From the IMG/VR virus record IMGVR_UViG_3300045988_175328, positions 163,220 to 227,219 of that record: a stretch of DNA of 64,000 bases, one strand, 5' to 3'. The translations under genes were made by a program, and so were the position numbers. The first letter of the stretch is position 1; each line of letters begins with the position of its first letter. This DNA is from a virus. Positions 11,294 through 46,373 of this stretch are shown one piece after another. Below the pieces are notes generated by a model, which saw only the letters and a list, made by a program, of their open reading frames with translations, was not told the origin of the DNA and ran no database searches.

Positions 11294-13666
11294 ATGTCAG
11301 AAAATATTAAAGATATTCGATTAGTTACTGCCGAAAAATATAAAGAGTTTACGACAGATAATATATCTGACGATAACATTGCATATCTTATCAATTCTGG
11401 TGAACTTCTTCTTAAAACAGAATTTGATACGTTCAAAGAAACAGTTCCGACAAAAGAACAAGTTTCTTCGACATATGCAGAAAAAACATCTTTAGCTCCT
11501 TACGAAACTAAAGAGAATGCCGAAGCTCTTTATTTAAAAAAGAGTGACGCAGAAACTACGTATTTGCAACCAAAAGATTTAGAAAATATTCCTAAAAAAT
11601 CTGACTTAAATCTATATCTTACAAAAGAATCGGCTTCTTCTGCTTACGCGACAAAAGAAGAAATAGGTACTTTTATTACGACAGAAACTGCAGAGAGAGC
11701 TTTTCTAAAAAAAGAAACTGCCGATTCTACGTATGCAGCAAAATCTGAAATTCCAGATGTAAGCTCTTTTCTTACAAGTAAAACGGCAGAAGAAACATAC
11801 GCTAAAAAAGATCAGCTCAATAATTTATTAACGACAGATGTCGCTGACTCTACGTATTTAAAACAAGACACTGCGTCTTCTACATATGCATTAAAATCAG
11901 AGATTCCGGCTTTAGATCCGTATGTAACAAAAGATTCAGCGAACTCTACATATGCCTTAAAAACAGATCTTAACAATATACCGACAGAAGCATCTATTTC
12001 TGAAACATACGTAAAGAAAACAGATCTTAACCTCGATACATATGTAACGAAAGATACAGCGTCTTCTACTTACGCGACAAAAGAAGAGTTAACTCCTCTT
12101 TTAAGATCTGCTTCTGCCGAAGAAACGTACCTTAAAAAAGCTGACCTTAATCTTGATCCATACTTAACTAAAGATACGGCTTCTTCCTCTTATGCGACTA
12201 AAAATGAAATCGCTAATTTCTTAACGGAAACATCTGCCGATTCTTCTTATGCTAAGAAAGAAGAGTTAACTCCTCTTTTAACAACAGCCGCTGCCGAAGA
12301 AACATATCTTAAGAAGAATGATGTTCATCTCGATACATATCTTACAAAAGATACAGCATCTTCAACTTATGCATTAAAAACAGATCTTACTCCATTTGTG
12401 ACAACTGAATCTATTGAAGCTACTTATTTAAAGAAATCTGATAGCGAAAATTTCTTAACTAAGAATATTGCTTCTTCTACATACTTAAGTAAAACTGATG
12501 CTGAGTCTCTTTACATTCCTAAAACAGAAGAACAATCTTTCTTAAAAACAGAAACTGCAGATTCTGTATATTTAACTAAAAATGATGCAGAGTCTACTTA
12601 TATGAAAAAAGGATCGGCGCTAACTGAAGAAGAAGCGAATTCTCTTTTCGCCAAAAAATCAGAAATCCCGACTGGTTATGCTGCGCAATCAGAAGTAGAA
12701 TCGACATACTTAAAAAAATCTGATGCAGAGTCCACGTATTTAAAGACAGCAACGGCTGCTTCTACGTACGCATTAAAATCTCAGATTCCTTCTGCCGATA
12801 CGTTCGTAACGAAAGAATCGGCTGAAAAAACATATTTAAAATCTGCTGATGCTGATACTAAGTATGCTTTAAAATCTGAGGTTGGTTCTTCTACAGCAAG
12901 CGGTTCTTTTACAAAAGAAATAGCCGATAACACATATTTATCGAAAGAGACTGCAGAATCTACATACTTAAAAACAGCAACAGCTGCTTCTACGTATGCG
13001 TTAAAATCTAGTATCCCTTCCTTATCTGATTATTTAACAAAAGATTCGGCGGCATCTACATATTTAACGACCGCAAAGGCCGATGAAGTTTATCAAAAAA
13101 AATCAGAATTAATTACTGCTCTTGATAACTATGTTACAAAAAAACTTGCGAACGAAACTTTTGTTACACAAGATTCTTTAAATAAACAAAAAGTTCTACT
13201 TCATTCTATAAAAGAAATTACTCCGCAAGGCGTTAAAGGTACTGCTAAGATTTCTTTTAATCGTACTGATAATATTGTTCAAGTAACATTTGGCGGTCTT
13301 TCTTGGGGCATGTTCAATGTTCTTCCATTTGATCAACTCAAGAAAACTCGTGAAGTAAATGGATATAAATGGTTCATGTTCACGAAAACAAGCAACAACC
13401 GAGATTACACTCATACTCATGTTGTTCCTGAAGGATATCGATCTGAAGGTTCCGTCATTACAACAATCTGTCTCGATAGCGGCGAACCGATCGGAACTAT
13501 GTATCTCGGCGGCAAAGATGATATGAATATTATTGTACTTCGTATTGCTAACGATAAAGTACAAAGTGCTCTTGACAAAGGATTCCGAGTATCCCCAGCA
13601 TTCTATCTTACTACCGATGCTCTTCCTCAAGAAACACGCGGTAATAAAATTCAGGTACCACAATAA
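11294..13666 (+). CDS. repeat-rich tail fibre protein
   Basis: 790 aa from ATG 11294 (track ORF starts at TTG 11288); many copies of a ~14-aa motif [ST]AxSTYAxK[ST][ED]L; non-repetitive C-terminal domain. Confidence 0.8.
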   Translation: MSENIKDIRLVTAEKYKEFTTDNISDDNIAYLINSGELLLKTEFDTFKETVPTKEQVSSTYAEKTSLAPYETKENAEALYLKKSDAETTYLQPKDLENIPKKSDLNLYLTKESASSAYATKEEIGTFITTETAERAFLKKETADSTYAAKSEIPDVSSFLTSKTAEETYAKKDQLNNLLTTDVADSTYLKQDTASSTYALKSEIPALDPYVTKDSANSTYALKTDLNNIPTEASISETYVKKTDLNLDTYVTKDTASSTYATKEELTPLLRSASAEETYLKKADLNLDPYLTKDTASSSYATKNEIANFLTETSADSSYAKKEELTPLLTTAAAEETYLKKNDVHLDTYLTKDTASSTYALKTDLTPFVTTESIEATYLKKSDSENFLTKNIASSTYLSKTDAESLYIPKTEEQSFLKTETADSVYLTKNDAESTYMKKGSALTEEEANSLFAKKSEIPTGYAAQSEVESTYLKKSDAESTYLKTATAASTYALKSQIPSADTFVTKESAEKTYLKSADADTKYALKSEVGSSTASGSFTKEIADNTYLSKETAESTYLKTATAASTYALKSSIPSLSDYLTKDSAASTYLTTAKADEVYQKKSELITALDNYVTKKLANETFVTQDSLNKQKVLLHSIKEITPQGVKGTAKISFNRTDNIVQVTFGGLSWGMFNVLPFDQLKKTREVNGYKWFMFTKTSNNRDYTHTHVVPEGYRSEGSVITTICLDSGEPIGTMYLGGKDDMNIIVLRIANDKVQSALDKGFRVSPAFYLTTDALPQETRGNKIQVPQ

Positions 13667-17347: not shown

Positions 17348-17375
17348 GAATTTGTTCAGAAAAGGAGAAATTATC

Positions 17376-20300
17376 ATGAACAAACAAAACATTCAAAACA
17401 ACAAAAATTTAAAAGCTGTCGTATTGGCAGCAGTAGATGCAGCAGTAGCTGCTGATGTGCGCGTGGTTAATACCACTGCGGCGGTAACAACCGCAGAAGC
17501 AGTAGTTACTGAAACTGCAGAAACACTTGCGCGCGCAGCGGTACAGTTTCAAACATTTATCAACAATTTTGTAGTAGAAGGAGGCGAGTATCGTAGCTTC
17601 ATGGGCATTCTATCTGATGTAGGATTTACACATCCAGATCTTGTTAAATGGGTGCGTAAACAAAAATGGACAGAAGCAATGTCTATTTGGAGAGAGGGTC
17701 AAGGATACACACGTAATTCTTTCCTTTGTGATGAAGACTGGAATACATTCCTCGAATTACGGGAAGCCCTCCTTCAAGCGCGCAATGCGTACAAAAACGC
17801 AAAACGTAAATTAGCTAGAAAAGAAGTCGCATTAAAAGCAGCAAAAAAAGAGGCAGCAAAAGCCTTATTAGCAGAGAAATCTGCAAACAAACAATGGAAA
17901 AAGGCGAGAAAGGATGCGAAAGAAGCAAGAGCTACTGAAGCAGCAGTAGCAGTCGAAGAGGCTCGATTAGAAAAAGCACGAAAACGTGCTGAAAAAGTGG
18001 GTCCGAAGGAACCGCCAAAACAAAGAGTGGCCGTAGCTGTTGCTGGTCTTGAGTCCATGTTAGAATGGATCGAATCTAGAAAGGTAGCTGTTACTAAAAC
18101 AGTTGTATTAGAAAATACAGCTAAATTAGTAACAGAAGCTAACGCAGCTGTTGAGTACGGTTATATGGATGCTAGAACTGGAGAATTTGTTTCTACAGAA
18201 GGAACAAAAGAGTTCTCTGGTGCTAGATTCAAAACTGGTGCTATCAACATTGCCGATAAAAATACTGCTAAAGCAACAGCAAAAGCCAACGCTACTGCTA
18301 ATGGTAAAGATTTAGATGGAGACGTCATAAATCGCTTCGTTAAACCTAGAAATATCCTTGATGGATTCAAACTTAAATTGCAAATGTTTGGATCTAAAGT
18401 ACGTGTGCGTAACGTACTTAAAGGTAATCGTAAAGGTTTTAAAGCTGTAATGGGACCAAAAGCACAAGTTGCTATTAAGTCCATTATCGTTGACGGTAGC
18501 GACGTAATGGCTAATGGTGAAGGTGTAAAAGCTATGGCAGTAGCAACTACATCCTCCATTAGCTATATTGTACGTACAGCAATTCGTCTTGGCGAAGAAA
18601 AAGGATGGGCTGAAGAGCTTGTTCTTAGAAATTCTTCTATTAAGACTGGCTATATGGATGGCAACATCGGTATCAACTCTCATAGAGAGATGACATCGAT
18701 GGAAGCCGATTTAACATATATGACTGCAGAAGTATCTGCTAATTATGTGTTGAATGGCTTAATCTCCATTCATATCGATAAAGAGGATGAGGAAGGCGTA
18801 TCCTTCACAAAGGGCATTCGTCAAGCAGAATTCATTATCGTTGATGGAATTAAATACATTCCGTTAATGGTTGAGTCTGTTGCGAAGACTCGTCTATACG
18901 ATACAGTATGGACAGCTGAGCATCTGGCTAACCAATGGCGCGAAGTGCTTCGTGTAGCGACAGGAGGAATCTCTGACAGTATTACTCTAATGAAAGAGTT
19001 AACTAAAGCTCTTAAATTGAGAAGCCGTTTGGGAATGGGGTTCTCTCCTAGCTATGAGTTCGAAATCGATCTTGCACGTTGGGGCGTTGTGTATCTTGAC
19101 GCTTCTATCGATGCAATCGACGGACAAGCTTACGGAAGCAGAGCTATGATGGAAGAGCTTCTTGAACTAGCTGGCGTGAACTCATGGCAAGTTCGCACGA
19201 ATACAGGTAAAGGACAACTCGTTCCAATGAAAAGAATGAAACGTCTACTTGCTGTATTGTGCGAACAATACGGTCTTGAACTCGTTTACGTTTCTGACGT
19301 TGACGAAGTTCAAGCAGCTATTGATGCAGCAAGAGCTGAAGGTAAAAGAGTAGCCGTTGTTGTTGGTAACGCCGAACATATTGGCATGATCGGCGATATG
19401 AATTTCTTTAAAGGAATTCCGACTATCAATGATGGTGGCATTGTTCGTCTAAGCGTCTTGAGAAATCTTGCACCAACAGGCAACGGCTCTCACTTCGCTT
19501 ACCAGGCAGCAGTGGGTGCTTTATGCTCTTACGAATGGGATAATAAAGACCGTTTCGTAAAAGCATTGGCTATGCAAGCCGTTGAAAAATTCACAGAAGC
19601 TTTCAATGGCTGTGCTGTTAATAAATCTGTAACTGATTTGTTTGCAGCATTAGTTGGAGTAAAAGGATTGGCTGGCGAAGCTGATATCATCAGCGAATTA
19701 GCCAACGGTGCATTTACTCCAGCTATGTATGGCATTAAAGAGCTTTCCTATGCGTTAAGAAACGAGCAACAAGTTGTTCGTGGTAGTGCATGGAAAGTTT
19801 CTTGCCCAGGCATGAAGGACGAGCTATTTAACGAAGCTATTCTTGAAGGAGCTGGCCTACTTGTTGTAGAAGGAATTGTTTCTAATAACAATCCTTTACT
19901 AAAACAAGGCGATTGGGTGATGGCATTGAGATACCCACATTCCAATGGGTTCTCTTTCGTTAAAATCAGACTTGTAACAGTATCTGAAGCTATCGAAAGA
20001 GTGAACAACTCTTCCGCGTTTGCGGCTCAAAAAGCTGTCATGATCGATGAGCTATTATCCCTTGGTGATAATAACATCATGGTAGACAGCAGCCGTGAGG
20101 TATTGGAAGCATTAGCTGGTATGGATTTTGATGGAGACGTGATCTCTGTCTTAAATCCAGAAGAAGCAGAGTTGCTTTTGCCAATGGATGAGCTACGTAC
20201 AGTCATTGCTCCGATCGTAACGAAAGCTCAAGAAAAAGAGCTTGTTGTTACAGGAAACTTTGAAGATACAATGCAACATCTTCAAAGCGAGATGGCAGCT

Positions 20301-22178
20301 AATGAAACTAAGTACGTTGGCGAAATCTCCAATGGAGTAATGAAAGCAACTGAGTTCTTGGGTCTTCCTAAAGATGAACAAAGAAAAATTGTGGCAGAAA
20401 TTGTCCGCAATGGAAATCTAAGCCACAATGGCTTATTGCCTACGTTCAACTGGGAGGAACAAGTAACTTGGGTTGAAGGAAAAGAAGGATTCGTACTTAG
20501 CGATGAGTCTACAACTCCTCAAGCTTTAGTTGCTATGAAAAATGCGTTCTTCGATAAAGTTGATGAACGAAACTACTCTGTAGAAAGTTTCATCAACTTC
20601 GCAGAATACGTTGTCATCATGTCTGGTCCAACGCAAGGATTCGTAATTGATGCGGCGAAAAAATTCTGTCCAATCGTAGACTTAGCAGAAGATATCTTCT
20701 CCAACTTAAGTCTTGGATGGAAAAGATTCGCTCCAACAATGGTGCTTACATGCAATGAGTATGGAGAGTTCTCCAAAGGTATGTCTTATAACTTTGGCGA
20801 AGAGAACTCTAGCATTACTCTTACAGTAGGCGCATGTATTCAGGTAGAAGCTTTCAAAGCGTTTGCGGTGGAAGCTTCTAAAGCTATCTTAAATGCATTT
20901 GCTGGAGAGGATGCATCTAAAGCTAACTGGAAAGCATTTGAAGACGCATTGAAAAAAGAGTCTTTAATGTCTTTGGTTGGTGGTAAGATGAACTCTGCTA
21001 GAAAGAACTGCAGAAACATTGCTGCTGGAGCTGCAGCTGCGATTAAAGTTATCGACAACCAAATCGCAGAAGCTTGCGGCGAAGAAAACATTCCTAGTAA
21101 AACAATGAAGGAATGGAGCGACGCTATCGGCTGCATGTTTGCTGCATCTGGTACAATCAATCCTCTTGGATTACGTGCTTATGCATCCAGCAAAACATTA
21201 CGTCCAGCAATCTTGAAAGCAATGCTTGACGCTGCTGAAGTAAAATCCATTCCTGTAGAAATTGGATTTACTTCTATGGCAAGAGTTGCTTTTGCGAAAG
21301 CGAATGTTGGAGAAAAAGTATTCTTCGAAAACTCTAAAGCTGCTGATGCTAACGGAGTAATTCTTCTACACTCTGGTTTAACAGGTTACTACAAAGTATC
21401 TGTTAAAACAGAAGAAGTAGAAGAAAACGGAGAAACAATCTCTGTAGAGACATACTTCGTAGAAGTGCCTGTGTCCGAAGTATTAGGCATCGAACCGATG
21501 AAAACAAATCGTTTCGTTGCTCACTTAGGATACGAAGGTGCCGATGCTGAAGTCGCTAGAAAGTTTAATGCTGAATTAACTAAGTTCGACTTCTGCGCGG
21601 AAGGTACGTTCGCTTTCTATGGCACGATGAAAGAACTAAACAATCTTATGATTGAAAAGTTTGGCGAAGGTGTCTTAAGAGACGTATTGGTATCAACAAT
21701 AACTGGGCTAAAAAACGGTGAAGACGTTTATAGCCAACAGTTTGTTGATTTCATCGCTCTTGCTAATGGTCACGCTACTGATCCGAAGTATGCAGCTGAT
21801 GACAAACATGACCGCGTATTCTTTGTTCGCAAAGATGAGAATGGTCGGGTTGTGGTTATGAGATCATTGCCTAACCAAGCAATGGCTTATGGCCATGAAG
21901 CGTTTAAGCTAAGAGGCATGTTCGCTGGAGAACTAAGATTAGTTAGTTACATCTTAGAAGGAAAAGCTAAGTCTGACAAAAAGGGCTATGTTAATAGCTA
22001 CTTATTGTTAGAGCACAAAACTTTAGCTCCTAAGCAAGAAATCAGTGCGTATATCAATGGTTTAATTACTAAATATGCGGCTGATTTCAAAGCAGCTGTC
22101 TTAAATAAAAAGTTCGAATTAGGTTGCCTTGGTAGCCTAGTTCAAACTGTATTATCTGATGAAGAAATCATTGGATAA
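17376..22178 (+). CDS. putative single-chain two-barrel (DPBB) RNA polymerase, YonO / crAss-gp66-like
   Basis: 1600 aa from ATG 17376 (AAAGGAG RBS; track ORF starts at TTG 17352); RTNTGKG (19194-19214), RYPH (19929-19940), DFDGD (20124-20138) in beta-then-beta-prime order. Confidence 0.6.
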   Translation: MNKQNIQNNKNLKAVVLAAVDAAVAADVRVVNTTAAVTTAEAVVTETAETLARAAVQFQTFINNFVVEGGEYRSFMGILSDVGFTHPDLVKWVRKQKWTEAMSIWREGQGYTRNSFLCDEDWNTFLELREALLQARNAYKNAKRKLARKEVALKAAKKEAAKALLAEKSANKQWKKARKDAKEARATEAAVAVEEARLEKARKRAEKVGPKEPPKQRVAVAVAGLESMLEWIESRKVAVTKTVVLENTAKLVTEANAAVEYGYMDARTGEFVSTEGTKEFSGARFKTGAINIADKNTAKATAKANATANGKDLDGDVINRFVKPRNILDGFKLKLQMFGSKVRVRNVLKGNRKGFKAVMGPKAQVAIKSIIVDGSDVMANGEGVKAMAVATTSSISYIVRTAIRLGEEKGWAEELVLRNSSIKTGYMDGNIGINSHREMTSMEADLTYMTAEVSANYVLNGLISIHIDKEDEEGVSFTKGIRQAEFIIVDGIKYIPLMVESVAKTRLYDTVWTAEHLANQWREVLRVATGGISDSITLMKELTKALKLRSRLGMGFSPSYEFEIDLARWGVVYLDASIDAIDGQAYGSRAMMEELLELAGVNSWQVRTNTGKGQLVPMKRMKRLLAVLCEQYGLELVYVSDVDEVQAAIDAARAEGKRVAVVVGNAEHIGMIGDMNFFKGIPTINDGGIVRLSVLRNLAPTGNGSHFAYQAAVGALCSYEWDNKDRFVKALAMQAVEKFTEAFNGCAVNKSVTDLFAALVGVKGLAGEADIISELANGAFTPAMYGIKELSYALRNEQQVVRGSAWKVSCPGMKDELFNEAILEGAGLLVVEGIVSNNNPLLKQGDWVMALRYPHSNGFSFVKIRLVTVSEAIERVNNSSAFAAQKAVMIDELLSLGDNNIMVDSSREVLEALAGMDFDGDVISVLNPEEAELLLPMDELRTVIAPIVTKAQEKELVVTGNFEDTMQHLQSEMAANETKYVGEISNGVMKATEFLGLPKDEQRKIVAEIVRNGNLSHNGLLPTFNWEEQVTWVEGKEGFVLSDESTTPQALVAMKNAFFDKVDERNYSVESFINFAEYVVIMSGPTQGFVIDAAKKFCPIVDLAEDIFSNLSLGWKRFAPTMVLTCNEYGEFSKGMSYNFGEENSSITLTVGACIQVEAFKAFAVEASKAILNAFAGEDASKANWKAFEDALKKESLMSLVGGKMNSARKNCRNIAAGAAAAIKVIDNQIAEACGEENIPSKTMKEWSDAIGCMFAASGTINPLGLRAYASSKTLRPAILKAMLDAAEVKSIPVEIGFTSMARVAFAKANVGEKVFFENSKAADANGVILLHSGLTGYYKVSVKTEEVEENGETISVETYFVEVPVSEVLGIEPMKTNRFVAHLGYEGADAEVARKFNAELTKFDFCAEGTFAFYGTMKELNNLMIEKFGEGVLRDVLVSTITGLKNGEDVYSQQFVDFIALANGHATDPKYAADDKHDRVFFVRKDENGRVVVMRSLPNQAMAYGHEAFKLRGMFAGELRLVSYILEGKAKSDKKGYVNSYLLLEHKTLAPKQEISAYINGLITKYAADFKAAVLNKKFELGCLGSLVQTVLSDEEIIG

Positions 22179-26597: not shown

Positions 26598-27083
26598 ATG
26601 GAATTACAAGTAATTAAAGGTATGGTTATTGCGGCAAAATTAGCAAACAAATTTATGGGCGGCGCCTTGGAAAACAATCGTGCCGAGCTCCAAATCGGTG
26701 ACGTGAATTTAGTTATTTACAGCGCTGGCGGAAACGAGGTAGTAATTGCTCCAACTTCTATGGAGATGTGGTATGACCCAATCCATGTTGAAGGAACTTT
26801 GGAAACTGTCTTCGATACCATCGGAGAGATGCTAAAAGAAGCTGTCGAAGATGACGAAGACTCTCCATATCGTTACGAGTTTCCTAACTTAGAGCGCCTT
26901 GTCGAGTATATCGAGAAAGAAACAGGTGTCGTAGCTAACGAACATCCTAAATGCTATACTAAAGAATGGGACGGTATTATGGAATTCGACGAGTTCAAAA
27001 TCGTTTTCTTTGGGCCATACCATGGTACTGTATATGTGCCGGAAGATTACAAACTTAACTTTGTGTTGAAAGAGTTACCATAA
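26598..27083 (+). CDS. family D two-domain protein
   Basis: 161 aa; about half of residues identical by eye to 27363 product (…SPYR..F.NL..LVEYI.KETG...EHPK.Y...FGPYHGTVY.PEDY.LNFVL.ELP). Confidence 0.8.
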   Translation: MELQVIKGMVIAAKLANKFMGGALENNRAELQIGDVNLVIYSAGGNEVVIAPTSMEMWYDPIHVEGTLETVFDTIGEMLKEAVEDDEDSPYRYEFPNLERLVEYIEKETGVVANEHPKCYTKEWDGIMEFDEFKIVFFGPYHGTVYVPEDYKLNFVLKELP

Positions 27084-27094
27084 GGAGAAATATT

Positions 27095-27349
27095 ATGGAA
27101 TTAATTAAAGGATTATTCATTGGCGCCGCCTTACTAGGCAAACCAGTTCTCGTTAAGAAAGAACGGAAGGGCGTATACAATTTTATTATCGGGCCGATCA
27201 CAGTTTTTATCTATGATTGGGATGACAGTCGCACTATCGTCGGTATTGATGGACCAGAAGGTTCATACGAATCTTACAAAATCGACGGGGATGTGAGAAC
27301 AGTATTACACTACCTTGTAGATGTCAACAATAATATCGAGATTAAATAG
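27095..27349 (+). CDS. family D small protein (N-half type)
   Basis: 84 aa; MELIKGLFIGAALLGK... matches N-terminal half of 26598 product. Confidence 0.7.
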   Translation: MELIKGLFIGAALLGKPVLVKKERKGVYNFIIGPITVFIYDWDDSRTIVGIDGPEGSYESYKIDGDVRTVLHYLVDVNNNIEIK

Positions 27350-27362
27350 GAGTATTATTGCT

Positions 27363-27842
27363 ATGAAAATTATTGAAGGTTTAATTATGGCTGCAAGATT
27401 AGCAAATAAAGATATAACATATCGACTAGAAATTAATTATGCCGAATTTAAGATTGGAGATATTACTTTAGATATCTACATAAAAGATAAAAATATAGTT
27501 ATGATTACTCCGACTTGTGAGAACATGTGGGGACAGCCACTCTATATCGAAGGAACAGTCGGGTCTGTTTTCTCTGATATCTTAGACATGGTAAACGAAT
27601 CAGATGTCGATTCTGAGAATTCTCCGTATCGTCAGCGCTTTTCAAATTTAAAATCTTTGGTTGAGTACATCGTAAAAGAAACGGGAGCTATTGCAGGAGA
27701 ACATCCCAAACGTTATATCGAAGAGTGCGCTGACGTTATCGAATTCATTGAATTTAAAGTTGTATTATTCGGGCCATATCATGGAACAGTGTATGCTCCC
27801 GAAGATTACCAACTGAACTTTGTTTTAGACGAATTACCGTAA
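27363..27842 (+). CDS. family D two-domain protein
   Basis: 159 aa from ATG 27363 (track ORF starts at 27321). Confidence 0.8.
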   Translation: MKIIEGLIMAARLANKDITYRLEINYAEFKIGDITLDIYIKDKNIVMITPTCENMWGQPLYIEGTVGSVFSDILDMVNESDVDSENSPYRQRFSNLKSLVEYIVKETGAIAGEHPKRYIEECADVIEFIEFKVVLFGPYHGTVYAPEDYQLNFVLDELP

Positions 27843-28682: not shown

Positions 28683-28916
28683 ATGGAAAACTTGTGCGAA
28701 TTATTAATGGAAGAAAAAGAAATAGGATTAGTTCAGTCTGTCGAGATTGAAGACGACTTATATCTATATGAATATCCAAGCGGCCGAGCACTCGTTAAAG
28801 AAATAGACGGGTACGCTACTTGTGACGTAGAGGTGGACGGAAGAAGATTCTTTTCAGATATCCATCTGCCATATAAAGATGTGGTGCGAGAATTAAACAG
28901 AGTCGTAGAATTATAA
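28683..28916 (+). CDS. family D-like small protein
   Basis: 77-aa ORF, AAGGAG RBS. Confidence 0.7.
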   Translation: MENLCELLMEEKEIGLVQSVEIEDDLYLYEYPSGRALVKEIDGYATCDVEVDGRRFFSDIHLPYKDVVRELNRVVEL

Positions 28917-28920
28917 TAAT

Positions 28921-28968
28921 AAGGGGTGCCCGAGCGAAGCGAGGGGTTAACGCCCCTTTTATTTTTTT
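28921..28968 (+). terminator. intrinsic terminator whose loop holds the first GA/GAA hairpin unit
   Basis: aaggggtg...cgcccctt stem then tttatttttttc. Confidence 0.7.
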
Positions 28969-29475
28969 CTAATAACCGTCTCCAACGGATCTAGCGAGCG
29001 AAGCGAGCGATTAACGAACCTACTATGTTTAAAGGGCGAGCGAATGCGAGCCCTTGTTAATGGACTTGTTTATATGAGGCGAGCGAAGCGAGCCGTTAAT
29101 GTACCTATCTTAAGTTTAGTAAGGGCGAGCGAAGCGAGCCCATTAAAGAACTAACTTAAAGATAGTAGCGATGCGAACGAAGTGAGCCGAGCTGTTGGTC
29201 CTTACTATAGTATAGTCGGCGAGTGAAACGAGCCGTTATAGTATAGTACTTATATATAGTATTAATAGAAAGAACCCGAAGGGTTATTATGTATAATAGT
29301 ATATATAAGCGAAAAAGGGAGCGTGAGCGACAGAAGGAGAGGCGGCGAACGAAGTGAGCCGTTGTTTGTTTCTTTGTTCCTGTATATATAAGAAAAGACA
29401 AGACAATTTGTTTTCGTCTTTTTGTTATATATAGTATAAAGAAAAAGAATAAATGGGCGCGAGCGGCAGCGAGCG
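28929..29475 (+). repeat. array of about 10 GGC-GA-GC-GAA-GC-GA-GCC hairpin units, each followed by GTTAA-like sequence
   Basis: units at 28929, 28993, 29034, 29078, 29123, 29173, 29217, 29318, 29341, 29455; outer stems covary (ccc/ggg vs ggc/gcc), inner gc/gc vs gt/ac. Confidence 0.8.
28974..28989 (+). repeat. 16-nt direct repeat aaccgtctccaacgga, left copy
   Basis: exact second copy at 43141-43156; both follow a terminator plus T-rich run. Confidence 0.85.
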
Positions 29476-29608
29476 ATTGTTTGTTCTTGTATACTATATA
29501 ATAGTATAAGAAAGACAAGAATTTTTTTGTTTGTCTTATAGTACTATATAGTATTAATAGTAAAAGAAATAAAAAAAAGAATGCCGGAAGTGGTCTTGAA
29601 GAGATTTA

Positions 29609-29636
29609 TGGTAATATAAGTCATGGTACATGACTT
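29609..29636 (+). promoter_or_regulatory. extended -10 (TGgTAATAT) followed by GTA-triloop hairpin, unit 1
   Basis: tggtaatat then aagtcatg-gta-catgactt then aac. Confidence 0.5.
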
Positions 29637-29786
29637 AACCCGTGGGAATTGTGGACGACCCTTCCTTCCGGTGCATGTACCTTTTTTATTTTTTGTCGCT
29701 GGCTCTTATTTAATTTTTGTTCTTGTTATATACTATATATATAATAATAAAAGAAATTAAAATAAGAATCGGCGCCGAGAAAATTT

Positions 29787-29813
29787 TGAGTAATATAAGT
29801 CTCGAAGAGACTT
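29787..29813 (+). promoter_or_regulatory. TGagTAATAT followed by GAA-triloop hairpin, unit 2
   Basis: aagtctc-gaa-gagactt then aac. Confidence 0.5.
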
Positions 29814-30036
29814 AACCGTGAGGTAGAATGGCCGGATGAATTGCTATTGTCTTATACTATATATATAGTAAGACACATAACATATCGCCGCCCGAACCCT
29901 TTAAAAAATTTTATTATTAAATTAATTTATATTTTTTAATTTTTTCGCCCCTGGTATTTTATTATAGTACTATATAGTAATAATATATAAACATAACAAC
30001 ATAATAATAATCGCCCGGGCTTCCTGAAAAAATTTT

Positions 30037-30062
30037 TGGTAATATAAGTCTCGAAGAGACTT
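30037..30062 (+). promoter_or_regulatory. extended -10 (TGgTAATAT) followed by GAA-triloop hairpin, unit 3
   Basis: identical hairpin aagtctc-gaa-gagactt. Confidence 0.5.
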
Positions 30063-30238
30063 AACTCCTTACCCCCGGTATCTTGATCCCGTAGGGGTCT
30101 TATTGTACTGTATCTACACTATAGTACTTACCGAACAAAATGTTTCTTATCTTACTTTTTATTCGGTTGTACATAGGGTTAGACACTTCGGTACATTAAA
30201 AAATTTTTTTTCTAAAAAAATGACTAACGTAACTTTTA

Positions 30239-30262
30239 TGAGTAATATAACTAACGTTAGTT
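30239..30262 (+). promoter_or_regulatory. TGagTAATAT followed by palindrome aactaacgttagtt, unit 4
   Basis: same TAATAT box, different but still palindromic downstream sequence. Confidence 0.45.
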
Positions 30263-30329
30263 TTCTTCGAAGAGAAGTAAGCTGAAACTGCAAGGCTGCC
30301 TGCTCTACGACTGCCCGTACGGTTTTTTA

Positions 30330-30930
30330 TAGAAGAATGGTAGTGTATTAATACTGTACTGTTAGTACTACTAGTACTGTACTACTCGACCCACACCTTT
30401 TGTGGCTGTGCCCTAAAAGGACGGGCCACTCTAATAGTTTTTTTACAGAAATTGTAGTTAATTTGTACTATTTCTAATGCAATATTAATAGTAAAACTGC
30501 ATTGGTTTTTCTGTACTTATAGATATACTAATTGCATTAGTTTTACAGATACAATTGTATTGGTTTTACAGTACCAACAGTTAACTAACACTACAGTACT
30601 TACAGTACTAATAAGACCGTACCAATGGTTTTAATGGTACTATAGTAAGATTGTACCATTGCCAATACAGCACTGCAAATAAAACCGTACTGTTTTGCAG
30701 TACTAAATGGTAATTAAATTGGTATGTTAATACAGTACTAACAAAACTGAACCAATGCTATTAATAGTACTACAGTTAAACTGTATCAACAAGACAGTAC
30801 CTATAGTACTATCAGAACTATAGTTAGATTGTATCAATAAGACAGAACCAATAGAACTATTGAAGCTATAGAAAGACTGTACTAATTAAACTGTACTAAT
30901 AGTATTAACAGTACATATAGTAAAGTAGTA
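30330..30930. repeat. GTAC-rich iteron field (possible origin or protein-binding array)
   Basis: I count 21 GTAC tetramers, mostly as CAGTAC(T/C) or CTGTACT, interleaved with about 10 copies of ACTGTAYCAATGGTTTTA-like repeats. Confidence 0.7.
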
Positions 30931-30994
30931 TTATATTAATAATTGTAATAGTAGTATTAATAATAAGAAGAATAAAGAAAAGAAAAATTTTTTT

Positions 30995-31022
30995 CTTAAG
31001 GGGCAAGCCCCTTAACAACCCC
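30995..31022 (+). repeat. H5 28-nt element, copy 2
   Basis: cttaaggggcaagccccttaacaacccc preceded by A5T7. Confidence 0.9.
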
Positions 31023-31025
31023 AAG

Positions 31026-31053
31026 TTGGTGAAGTTTAAAACAGCAGTAATAT
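31026..31053 (+). promoter_or_regulatory. candidate sigma-A-type promoter
   Basis: TTGGTG, 16-nt spacer, TAATAT. Confidence 0.4.
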
Positions 31054-31059
31054 AAAGAC

Positions 31060-31268
31060 TGTGTTTTTTGTATCACCTCCAATACCGAAACACACATCAT
31101 AATGTTTCCTCCTTTCTAAAATGATGAGAACTGAGAGCTCGGTTGAAACTTAGACCGAGCCTTGGTCTTATCGCGTTTACGCGTAATATACGAGTCCTGT
31201 AAGGACTCGATAACTGGAAACGATGTTAATTTATAGGAATATAGCCGCCCGTTTGGGCGGCTTTTTTT
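31060..31268 (+). ncRNA. candidate small RNA or structured leader (three hairpins + terminator)
   Basis: gctcggt/accgagc, cgcgt/acgcg, cgagtcc/ggactcg stems, then agccgccc-gttt-gggcggct T7 (31243-31268); no ORF. Confidence 0.4.
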
Positions 31269-31289
31269 GTTTTATTTGAGGTGTTATTT

Positions 31290-32018
31290 ATGGGATTTGA
31301 TGGAAACTATAAAGACGAAAAATGGATTGTTTCGATAAACCGAGAGAAGAATCTTATTATCGAAGAACGAGGTGAGTTGTATGAAGTTCAATGTATCGGA
31401 ATGAATGGCAATGTGTTAGTCGACAGAGTATTCTTTATGGGCCCGATTAGCGAAGAAGAAGTTTGGGAACTTATCTGGAGACTGAGATTGGAAGGTATAG
31501 ACGGAGAACTAACGATAGAAGAAAGTGGTTTGAACTATAAGGATTGGTTTGACGGGTTCGGTTTATACGAAAGCGATTTGTTATTTGGAGGATCCTGTTT
31601 ATGGAGAAGAACTGTCGGAGATGTTATTATCGATATCGGTATATCAGGTAACGGTAGAAATATTATGTACGAGAGAAAAGAAGATAGTTTCTTTGAAGTT
31701 TTAGTATATAGTGGTAACAGTAAAATTAGAAGTGAAATTAGTCAAAGTAAGAGCTTTGGTATTGGTAGTCCTTATAATAATAGTGATATTCTTAGTAATA
31801 GTATAGATAGTGTTATTATTGATAATAGTAATAGTAGTAATAATAGTGGAGATGGTAATAATGGTATATATAGTTATAACTATAGTGGATTACCTTGTTA
31901 TTATAGAGGATATATTAGTTACTATATAGTATTAGAGATTATAGATATGTTTATTAGAGAGTATGGAGGAGTTAAAGAGAAAAGAAAAATTTTTTTTCTT
32001 AAGGGGCAAGCCCCTTAA
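31290..32018 (+). CDS. family C two-domain paralogue with Ser/Asn low-complexity insert
   Basis: 242 aa from ATG 31290 (GAGGTG RBS); C-terminus runs into H5 copy 3. Confidence 0.7.
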   Translation: MGFDGNYKDEKWIVSINREKNLIIEERGELYEVQCIGMNGNVLVDRVFFMGPISEEEVWELIWRLRLEGIDGELTIEESGLNYKDWFDGFGLYESDLLFGGSCLWRRTVGDVIIDIGISGNGRNIMYERKEDSFFEVLVYSGNSKIRSEISQSKSFGIGSPYNNSDILSNSIDSVIIDNSNSSNNSGDGNNGIYSYNYSGLPCYYRGYISYYIVLEIIDMFIREYGGVKEKRKIFFLKGQAP

Positions 32019-44189: not shown

Positions 44190-44411
44190 TGAAATACCGT
44201 CAAATTGTTAAAACGGTAGCACATGCTTGTATTAACTATAAATTAAGTCTTCCTATAGACTTTAAATTAATTTTAACAAGAACTTCGTGCATGTTGTATG
44301 CTAAAGGAGAGAATGATGCTACATTTAAAGGTCGACTAATTTTATTGAAATTCAGAACTAACACTCGTGATTTTAATCATGAGATACAGTTTTGGAAATT
44401 AGTAAGCCTGT
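44189..44411 (+). CDS. exon 1 of a small gene interrupted by an IStron
   Basis: ORF 44189..44413; its TAG stop is created by the intron, since the predicted 5' splice site follows T44411. Confidence 0.6.
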
Positions 44412-44815
44412 AGGGAAACTTGCAGGTAGAAATAGCTTTTAGCTATTCAACGAAGAAACTGAATTGCTGGGAACCCCTAAAGCTCAATTAACTACAATAT
44501 AGATTTGAAATATAATCAAGTATGAATGTGGCGAAAGCAGAAAAAATAATTGAGATAAGATATGGTTAAACCCTAAGTCTTAAGATAATGGGCAATCAGC
44601 AGCGAAGCTCCGAATAGGAGAACGTTCAACGACTATTCCTCGTGAGGGAAGTACACCGTAAGCGATTGACGGTGGAAGTGGTGTCGCCTAAGTCGCAATA
44701 GCGATATGGATAAGATATAGTCTGTGCTTATGCGAAAGTATAAGATGCGCGTAATGGCGCTGGTTAGGAATAGCGATCCTGATTGAACGAGACCTCACAA
44801 AACATGGTTCTAAAA
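44412..44815 (+). ncRNA. group I intron catalytic core
   Basis: P1 hairpin 44407-44426 with GAAA loop and U44411-G44422 wobble; P aattgctgggaa 44462-73; Q aatcagcagc 44594-603; R gttcaacgacta 44624-35; S aagatatagtct 44712-23; several GNRA hairpins. Confidence 0.8.
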
Positions 44816-44908
44816 TGTCCTGTAAAAGTTTTACTGAAAAGTTGTTTTTTAGTAAAAGTATGTTATAATAATCTCGTAATATAGTAATTAGAAAGCGAGG
44901 TGATAATA

Positions 44909-46159
44909 ATGTATGTAAATATGAAGCAACAGGTAAAACATCTAACAAAAGAAAAATACAATATCCTAAGAGAATTATGTAGGACTGCTAAGAATTTAAA
45001 AAATGAAGCAATTTATAATATTCGACAACATTATTTTCAAGAAAAACAATACTTGAGATATGAGTCGAATTATCATGAACTAAAGTATTCTGAAAATTAT
45101 AAGCTTTTAAATTCTAATATGGCACAACAAACTCTCAAGGAAGTTGATACAATGTTTAAATCATTCTTTGCTTTGATTAAAATGGCAAAGCAAGGAAAGT
45201 ACAGTTTTAAGCATATACGATTACCTAAGTATCTGCCTAAAAATGGATATTCAAATTTAATCATTGCACAATTTAAAATTAAAGATGGTATTTTAACTAT
45301 TCCAGTTTCTAATGCTTTTAAGGAAAAGCATGATATGAAAATTCAGATCAAAATTCCCAAAGCATTAGAAGGTAAAAAGATTAAACAGATTCAAATTATA
45401 CCTAAATTTAATGCTAGGTTCTTCGAGATTCAATATATATATGAAGTTCAAGAAGAAGATTTAAAATTAGATACCAACAATGCACTGGCTATTGATTTGG
45501 GAGTTAATAATTTGTGTACTTGCGTTACAAACGCTGGTAGATCTTTTATTATCGACGGAAGGAAGTTAAAATCTGTTAATCAATTCTTTAACAAGAATTA
45601 TGCTAAACTACAATCTATTAAAGACAAACAGCGTATCAAAAGACAGACGAAACAACAATATTTAATTTCTCTTAAGAGAAAGAATAGGGTTAACGATTAT
45701 ATCAATAAAACATGTCGATATATCATAAACTATTGCTTATCTAATAATATCGGAACTTTAGTTATTGGTTATAATCAGTCATTTCAATGTAAAACTAATT
45801 TAGGTAGGAGAAACAATCAAATTTTTACTCAATTGCCATTTGGTAAGATTCGAGAAAAATTAGAATATTCGTGCAAACGATATGGTATTAATTATATCTT
45901 ACAAGAAGAATCTTACACTTCTAAAGCTAGTTTTTTTGATAATGATGAGTTACCTATTTATAATGCTGACAATCCACAGGAATATGAGTTCAGTGGAAAG
46001 CGTGTTAAAAGAGGATTATACCAGACTAAAGATGGTTATCTTTTTAATGCAGATTGTAACGGCGCATTAAATATTCTTCGTAAAAGTAGCGTTGTAGACC
46101 TTAGTGTCTTATACAGTAGGGGCGATCTGGACACGCCTAAAAGAATAAGGATCTTTTAA
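44909..46159 (+). CDS. tnpB: TnpB-like RNA-guided endonuclease (IS200/IS605 OrfB family)
   Basis: 416 aa from ATG 44909 (GAGGTG RBS); RuvC triad contexts AIDLGVNN, LQEESYTSK, FNADCNGALNILR; no CxxC zinc-finger pairs. Confidence 0.9.
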   Translation: MYVNMKQQVKHLTKEKYNILRELCRTAKNLKNEAIYNIRQHYFQEKQYLRYESNYHELKYSENYKLLNSNMAQQTLKEVDTMFKSFFALIKMAKQGKYSFKHIRLPKYLPKNGYSNLIIAQFKIKDGILTIPVSNAFKEKHDMKIQIKIPKALEGKKIKQIQIIPKFNARFFEIQYIYEVQEEDLKLDTNNALAIDLGVNNLCTCVTNAGRSFIIDGRKLKSVNQFFNKNYAKLQSIKDKQRIKRQTKQQYLISLKRKNRVNDYINKTCRYIINYCLSNNIGTLVIGYNQSFQCKTNLGRRNNQIFTQLPFGKIREKLEYSCKRYGINYILQEESYTSKASFFDNDELPIYNADNPQEYEFSGKRVKRGLYQTKDGYLFNADCNGALNILRKSSVVDLSVLYSRGDLDTPKRIRIF

Positions 46160-46230
46160 GATCAAACTTCTTAATAAAATAACTTTAAGTTATTTTTAGA
46201 ACCATGTGATTTTAATCATGTGAGGTTCAG
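46040..46230 (+). ncRNA. predicted omega-RNA scaffold / intron 3' segment (5' boundary approximate)
   Basis: by analogy with TnpB systems; agaaccatg (46198-206) and tgtgagg (46219-25) pair with catggttct (44803-11) and cctcaca (44793-99). Confidence 0.4.
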
Positions 46231-46373
46231 TGAATCGAGATATTGATCTTAATGAATATAGCGCTTACGACCAAATTGTGTATAAAACAGTAGAATCATA
46301 TTTAATTAAAAATCAGGAGGCATTCTCTAAGTTTAATACATTAGTCGGCACTATTGAATCTGAAGTAGAATAA
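46231..46373 (+). CDS. exon 2 of the IStron-interrupted gene
   Basis: T44411 + TG46231-32 gives Leu, then NRDIDLNEYSAYDQIVYKTVESYLIKNQEAFSKFNTLVGTIESEVE stop; splice after G46224 would also be in frame. Confidence 0.55.

Follow-up and report, generated by a model that had tools for sequence, protein, structure and literature searches.

A strand-specific array of ten mini-hairpins bracketed by G-A steps opens a control region in an uncultured jumbo phage

We analysed a 64,000-nt stretch of a virus genome (IMG/VR record IMGVR_UViG_3300045988_175328, positions 163,220 to 227,219; called here the window), which belongs to an uncultured jumbo phage of ~225 kb. At ~28929-29475 of the window we observed an array of ten mini-hairpin units, all of them on the + strand and with no copies elsewhere in the 64 kb. 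They share one consensus fold: a clamp of 2-4 bp, GA, 2 bp, a GNA or GNNA loop, 2 bp, GA, and the other half of the clamp. Judged from the sequences, the array is a real, conserved and strand-specific structured element of unusual design, for which neither Rfam nor a limited literature search gave a match. To our knowledge, functional DNA hairpins in double-stranded genomes are confined to very few systems, chiefly the promoters of phage N4 and the single-strand initiation (ssi) signals. The array would be a new form of this mini-hairpin trick, with a tandem G-A step and a clamp added, repeated ten-fold and showing compensatory evolution in two uncultured lineages of ~180-236 kb.

An earlier note on this DNA had placed ten units here, and by reading the window sequence we confirmed all of them at their positions. 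The units are given below together with their differences in the close relatives L001, L004 and L006, which with the window make up four related phage contigs of ~222-225 kb.

28929-28945, + strand: unit 1 (u1), CCC-GA-GC-GAA-GC-GA-GGG; the same in L001 and L006, CCCC/GGGG in L004.
28993-29009, + strand: u2, A-GC-GA-GC-GAA-GC-GA-GC-G, then ATTAACGAACC.
29032-29055, + strand: u3, AAGGGC-GA-GC-GAAT-GC-GA-GCCCTT, with a 4-nt loop and a 6-bp clamp; missing in L004.
29078-29094, + strand: u4, GGC-GA-GC-GAA-GC-GA-GCC, then GTTAATGTACC; missing in L006.
29123-29141, + strand: u5, GGGC-GA-GC-GAA-GC-GA-GCCC; its flanks form a longer imperfect stem, CTATCTTAAG...CTTAAAGATAG; loop GGA in L004.
29173-29187, + strand: u6, GC-GA-AC-GAA-GT-GA-GC, inner stem AC/GT.
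29217-29235, + strand: u7, CGGC-GA-GT-GAA-AC-GA-GCCG, inner stem GT/AC.
29318-29331, + strand: u8, degenerate, G-GA-GC-GTGA-GC-GA-C, with 1 outer pair only; kept in L001, L004 and L006.
29343-29361, + strand: u9, CGGC-GA-AC-GAA-GT-GA-GCCG, inner stem AC/GT; followed by the T-rich GTTGTTTGTTTCTTTGTT.
29458-29475, + strand: u10, CGC-GA-GC-GGCA-GC-GA-GCG, then ATTGTTTGTTC; loop GTCA in L006.

Some details of the earlier description needed correction. A GNA triloop had been claimed for every unit; seven units have it (u1, u2, u4-u7 and u9), and the other three carry 4-nt loops, one each of GAAT, GTGA and GGCA. The heptamer GCGAAGC or GCGGAGC, a G+C-rich hairpin with a 3-nt purine loop, is found in most units. 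The spacing, given as ~45-115 nt, is really 23-114 nt from start to start, u8 and u9 being merely 23 nt apart; the spacers between the units are 16-95 nt long and are conserved between relatives. The 5' flanks of the units are not conserved and the 3' flank is. The GTTAA-like sequence said to follow each unit was found behind u1-u5 (RTTAAYGNACC) and not behind u7 (GTTAT), u9 and u10 (G/ATTGTTTGTT). We observed G/ATT within 0-5 nt 3' of 8/10 units, where the template strand depends on fork direction. T-rich interrupted tracts follow units 9 and 10, and units 2-8 did not qualify as terminators. The statement that the region is free of open reading frames (ORFs) stands for credible genes, and the homologous stretches of L001, L004 and L006 carry no called gene; mechanically, a 120-aa ORF with a TTG start can be read on the - strand at 29156-29518.

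A search of the window with the pattern GCGANNGAANNGAGC, at most 1 mismatch being allowed, gave 6 matches, all on the + strand and all within 28994-29359. The number expected by chance was 0.70, and 6 matches were reached in 0/100 shuffles. We also applied a pairing-neutral test based on the anchor GA-NN-G-N(1-2)-A-NN-GA, which presupposes no pairing. Both inner pairs were Watson-Crick in 9/10 anchor matches on the + strand of the array, as against 2/59 elsewhere on the + strand of the window.

Conservation in relatives, the lack of which the earlier note had named as a refutation, was found: the array is kept at the same locus in L001, L004 and L006, although the large ORF of L006 is only 35% identical to that of the window. 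The covariation reported from the units of the window extends to orthologous units of these relatives, between which we counted at least four compensatory swaps (in u6, u7 and u9). In u6 the inner stem reads AC/GT in both the window and L001 but GT/AC in L004, and L006 has a GC/GC unit at the same position. The inner part of u7 is GT-GAA-AC in the window, GC-GGAT-GC in L001 and L004, and GC-GAAT-GC in L006, while the AC/GT inner stem of u9 in the window is replaced by GC/GC in L004 and L006. Loops interchange among GAA, GGA, GGCA and GTCA in orthologous units, and clamps interchange among CCC/GGG, CCCC/GGGG, GGC/GCC and CCGC/GCGG. The units themselves also turn over, with the losses of u3 and u4 listed above and an extra unit in L004.

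An exact-pattern scan of IMG/VR revealed a second, more distant lineage with its own arrays of 7-10 units, on contigs of 180-236 kb (L012, L014, L016, L017, L022, L024, L026, L092, L121, L122, L138 and L147). It has two protein homologies in common with the window. The stems of this lineage are more diverse (CC/GG, AT/AT, AC/GT and GT/AC), and its loops include GCA, GTA, GTCA, GCCA, GCTA, GTTA and GTAA. In both lineages the array opens an ORF-free, AT-rich and repeat-rich region of 2.4-4.3 kb, and the region headed by the second-lineage arrays is 3-4 kb long and TATA-rich. The arrays lie mid-contig in the long contigs, and a location at the genome terminus was rejected on this ground.

We pooled 39 distinct triloop and 23 distinct tetraloop anchor matches, unfiltered for pairing and with a few non-units inside, and counted the paired cells. 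These amounted to 77.8% for the triloops and 75.4% for the tetraloops. Column shuffles gave ~59% (59.9% for the triloops) and attained the observed level in 0/500 cases; slid partners gave 16-47% (23-47% for the triloops). Double changes were seen in every one of the 6 pairs, in triloops and tetraloops alike. The four pairs beside the GA steps were paired in >85% of units, and G-T/U wobble occupied ~3% of the cells of the four well-kept pairs. The strand-specific hairpin with a tandem G-A step and an outer clamp, as first proposed, is thus borne out by paired cells far exceeding both the shuffled and the slid controls. The only invariant positions are GA...GA and the loop G...A, the latter being demanded by the anchor of the wide loop survey itself. 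Because the pairs change together and nothing else is invariant, these comparisons indicate that the array fold is a selected intrastrand structure and not a protein site in duplex DNA.

We then compared the loops with the known rules for hairpin loops. Across the arrays the triloops were GAA (23), GCA (6), GGA (5) and GTA (5), a few non-unit anchor matches being counted among them, and the tetraloops of real units were 18 GNYA (GTCA, GGCA, GTTA, GCTA and GCCA) versus 3 GNRA. GAAT and GGAT loops were also present (window, L001, L004 and L006). The loop-closing pair was C:G in 35/39 triloop and 20/23 tetraloop units and mostly T:A in the remainder, and the pair behind it was G:C, A:T or C:G. 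According to the review PMC13037366, the rule for DNA mini-hairpins is GCGNAGC/GCGNNAGC, and GAAB loops still fold; the melting temperature is 76.5 C for d(GCGAAGC) and d(GCGAAAGC) versus 39 C for r(GCGAAAGC), and single-stranded DNA-binding protein (SSB) binds mini-hairpins poorly. The loop and closing-pair rules of this Hirao mini-hairpin, d(GCGNAGC)/d(GCGNNAGC), are followed by essentially all units, those of the GAAB type included; the difference is that it is a physico-chemical motif and not a biological system. As read from their sequences, the loops of the arrays obey this DNA rule and not the GNRA rule of RNA. ViennaRNA with DNA parameters gave -1.1 to -6.6 kcal/mol, with the two strands 0.4-0.8 apart, and this set cannot judge between DNA and RNA because mini-hairpin terms, including the mini-hairpin bonus, are absent from it.

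The control region opened by the array follows a run of small ORFs that ends at 28916, and dozens of small unannotatable ORFs come after it. Besides the units, it has the following features.

28917-31280, + strand: ORF-free control region of 2.36 kb, opened by the array; conserved in L001, L004 and L006.
28923-28968, + strand: intrinsic-terminator-like hairpin belonging to the operon upstream, with a T-run after its outer stem GGGGTG/CGCCCC; encloses unit 1 and a GTTAA bulge.
29240-29990: AT-rich palindromes TATAGTACTATATAGTA, promoter-like, between units 7-10 and the RNA-like modules.
29273-29285, + strand: plain mini-hairpin without GA steps, AACCC-GAA-GGGTT, with a C-GAA-G cap, between two AT-rich palindromes.
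29580-31230: six 'GTAATATA(A)-hairpin-TTAAC' modules, starting at 29611, 29790, 30039, 30242, 31047 and ~31185.
30340-30950: iteron field ACAGTAC/GTACTGT, dense, with 48-nt periodic repeats; conserved in relatives.

The outer stem of the terminator around unit 1 covaries, being GGGTAC/GTACCC in L004. Units 2-7 lie directly 3' of it, and no sigma-70-like promoter was found before 29262. GC skew stays positive on the + strand over the whole window and does not change sign at the array. The sequence TATATAGTA occurs 16 times in the window versus 1.6 expected, 10 of these within 29240-29990, and GTAATATAA occurs 6 times, 5 of them in the modules of 29580-31230. In these modules a GNA-loop hairpin (e.g. 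AAGTCTC-GAA-GAGACTT) is followed by TTAAC, and each lies in a G+C-rich foldable segment of ~100 nt, some of them terminator-ended. The modules are conserved in L001, L004 and L006, have the hairpin and TTAAC in common with units 1-5, and have the appearance of small early RNAs of one family or of promoter-hairpin units. The iteron field is suggestive of a candidate origin or partition site. In the second lineage, L016 carries at 7898-8300 three modules, spaced ~160 nt apart, of the form 'GCGGTGAAAC..GTTTCACCGG-TATATTACTCA', whose TATATTAC core resembles what we take to be the phiKZ early-promoter consensus.

All window ORFs of at least 150 aa are on the + strand, save one spurious-looking overlap at 13196-13663, and upstream of the array lie tail-fibre/baseplate genes (Gp10_C, YadA stalk). 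The neighbouring gene had been described in the earlier note as an RNA polymerase (RNAP); this identification was not confirmed, and the gene is only a candidate. The sole recognisable feature of ORF 17352-22178 (1608 aa), upstream of the array, is 'LAGMDFDGDVIS', and Pfam, PHROGs and PDB searches, by sequence and by profile, returned no match and no polymerase identity. Its GMDFDGD stays invariant in homologues with as little as 35% identity and also in three distant relatives from IMG/VR, and its homologues lie on metagenomic contigs of 222-225 kb. The segments 'NLAPTGNG' and 'RYPHSNG' of this ORF faintly recall what we presume to be the two double-psi barrels of cellular RNAPs. An AlphaFold2 model from an 8-row alignment was unusable (predicted local distance difference test score, pLDDT, 39). 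No such ORF was found in the second-lineage fragments examined, the GenBank phage set contained no DNA or protein relative of the region or of the ORF, and PHROG scans of 20 further window ORFs returned no replication or transcription genes. A link of the array to this 'RNAP' is conjecture.

We made some further observations on these upstream genes. The DFDGD ORF is a hypervariable cassette, with 95%, 78% or 35% identity and 1258-1788 aa in flanking DNA that is near-identical (L001, L004 and L006-L011), and several assemblies are interrupted 1-2 kb ahead of it. In L008-L011, the variants with 35% identity precede a 658-aa gene with AAA_33, PolyA_pol and HD domains, which is CCA-adding-enzyme-like. 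Two paralogous small ORFs, 26598-27083 (161 aa) and 27321-27842 (173 aa), have EHPK.Y..E and a C-terminal FGPYHGTVY.PEDY.LNFVL.ELP, and belong to a duplicated run of small genes just upstream of the array.

The core 15-mer of the units, GCGAGCGAAGCGAGC, is found widely outside coding sequence, in viruses, bacteria and archaea unrelated to the phage. With its continuation, GCGAGCGAAGCGAGC-NN-TTAA (20 fixed bases), it was found in 17 viral and 49 genome stretches versus ~1 expected by a rough calculation. The 15-mer alone is present in at least 120 viral contigs, and among the matches listed 132/145 copies (~91%) are in a stop-rich, non-coding context. Among the same matches, in unrelated genomes, its orientation was weakly tied to genes (26 copies between two rightward genes and 20 between two leftward ones). 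It often caps longer palindromes of unrelated sequence, and a palindrome-capping, non-coding 15-mer has the look expected of a nucleation cap for DNA hairpin extrusion. Small arrays of 3-5 copies occur in a few other contigs, large spaced arrays being confined to the two jumbo-phage lineages. A general layout of hairpin followed by TATA promoter was rejected, as TATA-like hexamers were found upstream of 14 and downstream of 16 out of 152 copies in unrelated contigs; the association of hairpin and TATA is specific to the AT-rich jumbo phages. Limited literature searches gave no match for the 15-mer and nothing relevant for GCGAAGC with phage. This breadth argues for a physico-chemical 'cap' that has been reused many times, and it also keeps a selfish or neutral explanation alive.

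The four roles offered by the earlier note (hairpin promoters or a loading site for the neighbouring RNAP, a single-strand origin or priming signals, a packaging or partition site, and a protein-sponge RNA) lie beyond what sequence alone can show. We infer that the units may act as DNA and not as RNA, because the loops fit the DNA rules, wobble is rare, no promoter lies ahead of units 2-7 and the orientation of the 15-mer in unrelated genomes is weakly tied to genes. The process that they serve would be the initiation of RNA synthesis. We tentatively favour, at less than even confidence, the reading that the units are SSB-resistant DNA landmarks for starting RNA synthesis, as promoters or priming sites, in an origin/early-control region. 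Each unit would have as its cap the 'extraordinarily stable' mini-hairpin, d(C-GNA-G) or d(C-GNNA-G), below which come a single tandem G-A/A-G step of the sheared type and a short clamp of G+C pairs. The array may have arisen by tandem duplication of a ~45-nt unit, after which the spacers would have drifted under selection that preserved the fold. Where the control region begins, the two strands would be parted by supercoil-driven extrusion, by transcription, or by origin unwinding or fork passage, and the purine-rich gene-sense strand would then fold into a row of hairpins resistant to SSB and nucleases. The complement, with its pyrimidine mismatches, would be unable to fold and would remain single-stranded. 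The hairpins together with the 3' flank RTTAAYGNACC would mark the start sites of RNA synthesis, either as a hairpin promoter or as the loading site of a phage polymerase requiring a single-stranded DNA (ssDNA) template, or as a G4/ssiA-type priming signal beside the iteron field. If the array acts as DNA, it would give a handle on early transcription or on the start of replication in these phages, and would be a candidate answer to what ssDNA-preferring virion RNAPs recognise.

A bolder form of this, which we regard as a long shot, is that mini-hairpins bracketed by GA steps form a start signal of a new class, read by polymerases that require a single-stranded template. The stable hairpin of the non-template (sense) strand and the unstable complement would hold the template open for an injected virion RNAP of the DFDGD type or for a phage primase. 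In vitro, two-barrel virion RNAPs use ssDNA as a template, and phi14:2 yielded no motif for early promoters. If true, the proposal would supply the missing early-promoter logic for these enzymes, and would account for the cap being scattered in the non-coding DNA of many unrelated viruses.

Known hairpin signals were compared with the array. Promoters of the N4 virion RNAP carry a G+C-rich heptamer hairpin, the extrusion of which needs a C:G closing pair and a loop with 5'G and 3'A (PMC4496689). This loop and closure make the hairpin of one strand unusually stable, so that it extrudes at physiological supercoiling, and the complementary hairpin is melted by SSB (PMC4496689, PMC13492108). The N4 promoter P2 is GAAGC-GGA-GCTTC, with the template strand 5'-...AGCCAAAAGAAGCGGAGCTTCAAC-3' (PMC13492108). 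The array has in common with these the heptamer GCG(A/G)AGC, the 3-nt G...A loop and the C:G closure, and units of L004 carry exactly GCGGAGC. N4 stems are 5-7 perfect bp, whereas the array has a 2-bp stem that is lengthened through the tandem G-A step; N4 has 3 promoters (P1-P3), each ahead of genes, whereas the array packs 10 units into 550 nt. A T7-like polymerase serves N4, whereas the sole candidate for the array is the DFDGD (two-barrel-type) protein without detectable homology. Neither the 1670-aa nor the 1608-aa ORF had a Pfam or PDB match to a T7-like giant virion RNAP (30 window ORFs scanned). By analogy, the array may work like an N4 promoter, in that the hairpin of one strand is stable and that of the other is not, without being a member of the N4 family.

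The ssi signals are mini-hairpin stem-loops (GCGAAAGC, GCGTTAGC and CCGAAGG) on the primer-template strand, which resist SSB and start synthesis a few nt 3' (PMC13037366). Neither a symmetric tandem G-A extension with a clamp nor an arrayed use was found in a term search of that review or in a limited literature search. The mini-hairpin is common to the array and to the G4, St-1 and alpha3 origins and ssiA of RSF1010, and the G/ATT after most units and the iterons ~1 kb downstream fit loosely. These known signals are single, or consist of 2-3 different hairpins, on ssDNA replicons or plasmids, whereas the array has ten units in a double-stranded DNA jumbo phage; nor is a tandem G-A step known from these signals. 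GTT is a site of T4-type primases.

Several points weigh against the units being landmarks for starting RNA synthesis. In N4 the template strand carries the hairpin, whose centre is at -11, with a conserved spacer and +1 lying 5' of it after an A-tract, whereas the array is on the gene-sense strand and has its conserved flank 3'. The N4-type geometry at the array would transcribe leftward, antisense to every gene, and no conserved 5' flank exists at the N4-type +1 position. On these sequences, the promoter or loading idea gains from the shared N4 heptamer and loses on the reversed geometry. We know of no precedent for ten initiation sites 45 nt apart. Neither a primase nor a confirmed RNAP was found among the 30 window ORFs scanned, and on 3 distant IMG/VR contigs with homologues of the DFDGD ORF no array lies within ~10 kb of it. 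The remaining points speak for an RNA-level element, which we consider nearly as likely as the DNA landmarks, though likewise at less than even confidence: read-through or a phage promoter that escaped recognition would give a transcript of the array, in which the hairpins would act as repeated binding sites for a phage or host protein (a sponge or assembly platform), as processing sites, as 5'/3' stabilisers, or as insulators that separate the late operon from the early region by pausing or termination. In both jumbo-phage lineages all units are on the gene-sense strand, and in an unrelated contig of 54 kb whose genes lie on both strands the orientation tracks the adjacent gene where resolvable. 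Unit 1 is nested in a covarying RNA-type terminator with a U-G pair and the extra unit of L004 lies in a 47-nt intercistronic spacer; as parts of a terminator and of an intercistronic site, these two must be transcribed. By the nearest-neighbour RNA model the units fold at -5.3 to -8.7 kcal/mol, more favourably than the complement by ~2 kcal/mol, and the tandem sheared G-A is a classic RNA motif too. Units 8-10 and many second-lineage units lie between TATA-rich promoter-like elements (5') and T-rich or terminator-like hairpins (3'), and the long intergenic regions of phi14:2 are the earliest and most highly transcribed parts of its genome. Against action in RNA, the predominance of triloops and of GNYA over GNRA tetraloops (18 versus 3) is unusual for RNA hairpins selected for stability, G-U pairs are almost absent, and units 2-7 are preceded by a strong terminator without a recognisable promoter. 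Among the matches listed, ~29% of resolvable copies in unrelated genomes are antisense to both neighbour genes. Rfam 15 at the gathering score found nothing for the array, a 17-19-nt hairpin being near the detection limit of covariance models; a permissive scan of 28800-31400 gave chance-level matches only (E up to 5), and ARAGORN found no tRNA or transfer-messenger RNA. The array shares many small, similar, tandem and non-coding hairpins with sponge RNAs of the CsrB/RsmZ type and with RNA anti-CRISPR mimics, and differs from the sponges in lacking a GGA that is invariant in the loops. A role in CRISPR or anti-CRISPR mimicry was rejected, as the units vary in stem and loop and the 16-95-nt spacers are too short and too conserved between relatives; the array-like genome and metagenome matches inspected were all minisatellites or loose clusters, with no CRISPR array carrying this repeat. 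If the array acts as RNA, it would be an uncatalogued, very small and very common structured motif.

Two further explanations were weighed. The units may be a selfish or neutral repeat without function for the phage, REP/MITE-like (repetitive extragenic palindrome, miniature inverted-repeat transposable element) or a slippage-prone hairpin seed, which would spread by duplication or by a hairpin-recognising (HUH-type) enzyme and accumulate where insertion is tolerated. Like REPs, palindrome-associated transposable elements (PATEs) derived from IS200/IS605 and hairpin MITEs, the units are short, strand-specific, imperfect intergenic hairpins, present in different numbers in different strains. 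In one metagenome-assembled genome (MAG) of Hyphomonadaceae the 15-mer tops a MITE/REP-like element of ~100 nt that has ~20 copies; the 15-mer also lies inside composite repeats of giant-virus-like contigs, and forms head-to-tail minisatellites in GC-rich metagenome contigs; moreover, the close relatives differ in unit number, L004 having its extra copy elsewhere. Still, we hold this explanation to be unlikely. The ten copies of the window are clustered in one locus and in one orientation, the locus is syntenic in four relatives, and in the second lineage the array also heads a similar ORF-free region. The repeated compensatory changes mean a fold maintained over time, beyond mere copying, and the phage units have no common mobile-unit flanks, their spacers not being conserved in the manner of a mobile unit. 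Neither dispersed copies in the 64 kb nor, in a non-exhaustive search, a Y1/HUH transposase was seen, so the array does not qualify as a REP with its associated tyrosine transposase (RAYT) or as an IS200/IS605 PATE. The sole transposon-type gene of the window is TnpB, and a link of the array to this TnpB/IS605 element was rejected since the ends of the element are unrelated to it. The units could also be protein sites in duplex DNA, that is, a pac/terminase, partition or repressor array of double-stranded quasi-palindromes, and ten alike sites in one non-coding locus near an iteron field do resemble pac, cosB and parS arrays. Such sites would conserve base identity, whereas here the bases change pairwise and keep intrastrand complementarity, the invariant positions are non-palindromic, and the same cap tops unrelated palindromes in unrelated genomes. 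Because of the compensatory changes, the packaging or partition idea is disfavoured by these sequences, and we rate duplex sites of any of these kinds as very improbable. Both the preferred DNA-level landmarks and the RNA-level element are testable with oligonucleotides. Mini-hairpins are known to interfere with sequencing, so that the units also bear on sequencing and assembly.

Some minor observations concern the wider occurrence of the 15-mer and the mobile element of the window. The Hyphomonadaceae copies (L036-L080; CAYUEM01, an uncultured MAG) number ~20 and form a palindrome of ~100 nt with the apex GCGAGCGAAGCGAGC-CTTTAA. In L042, L055 and L073, from Woeseia, Rariloculaceae and another gammaproteobacterial MAG, we observed a non-coding element of ~120 nt in which the 15-mer is followed by GGTTAAG-GGGGTAGGACCAACCCCC; this is possibly a structured RNA or a mobile-element end. 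The stretch 44402-46250 of the window holds a group I intron (RF00028; 55.9 bits, E 6e-13, below default scan filters) followed by TnpB/IS605 OrfB at 44900-46159. The layout of intron and TnpB is IStron-like, and GTGATTTTAATCATG repeats flank it at ~44366 and ~46207.

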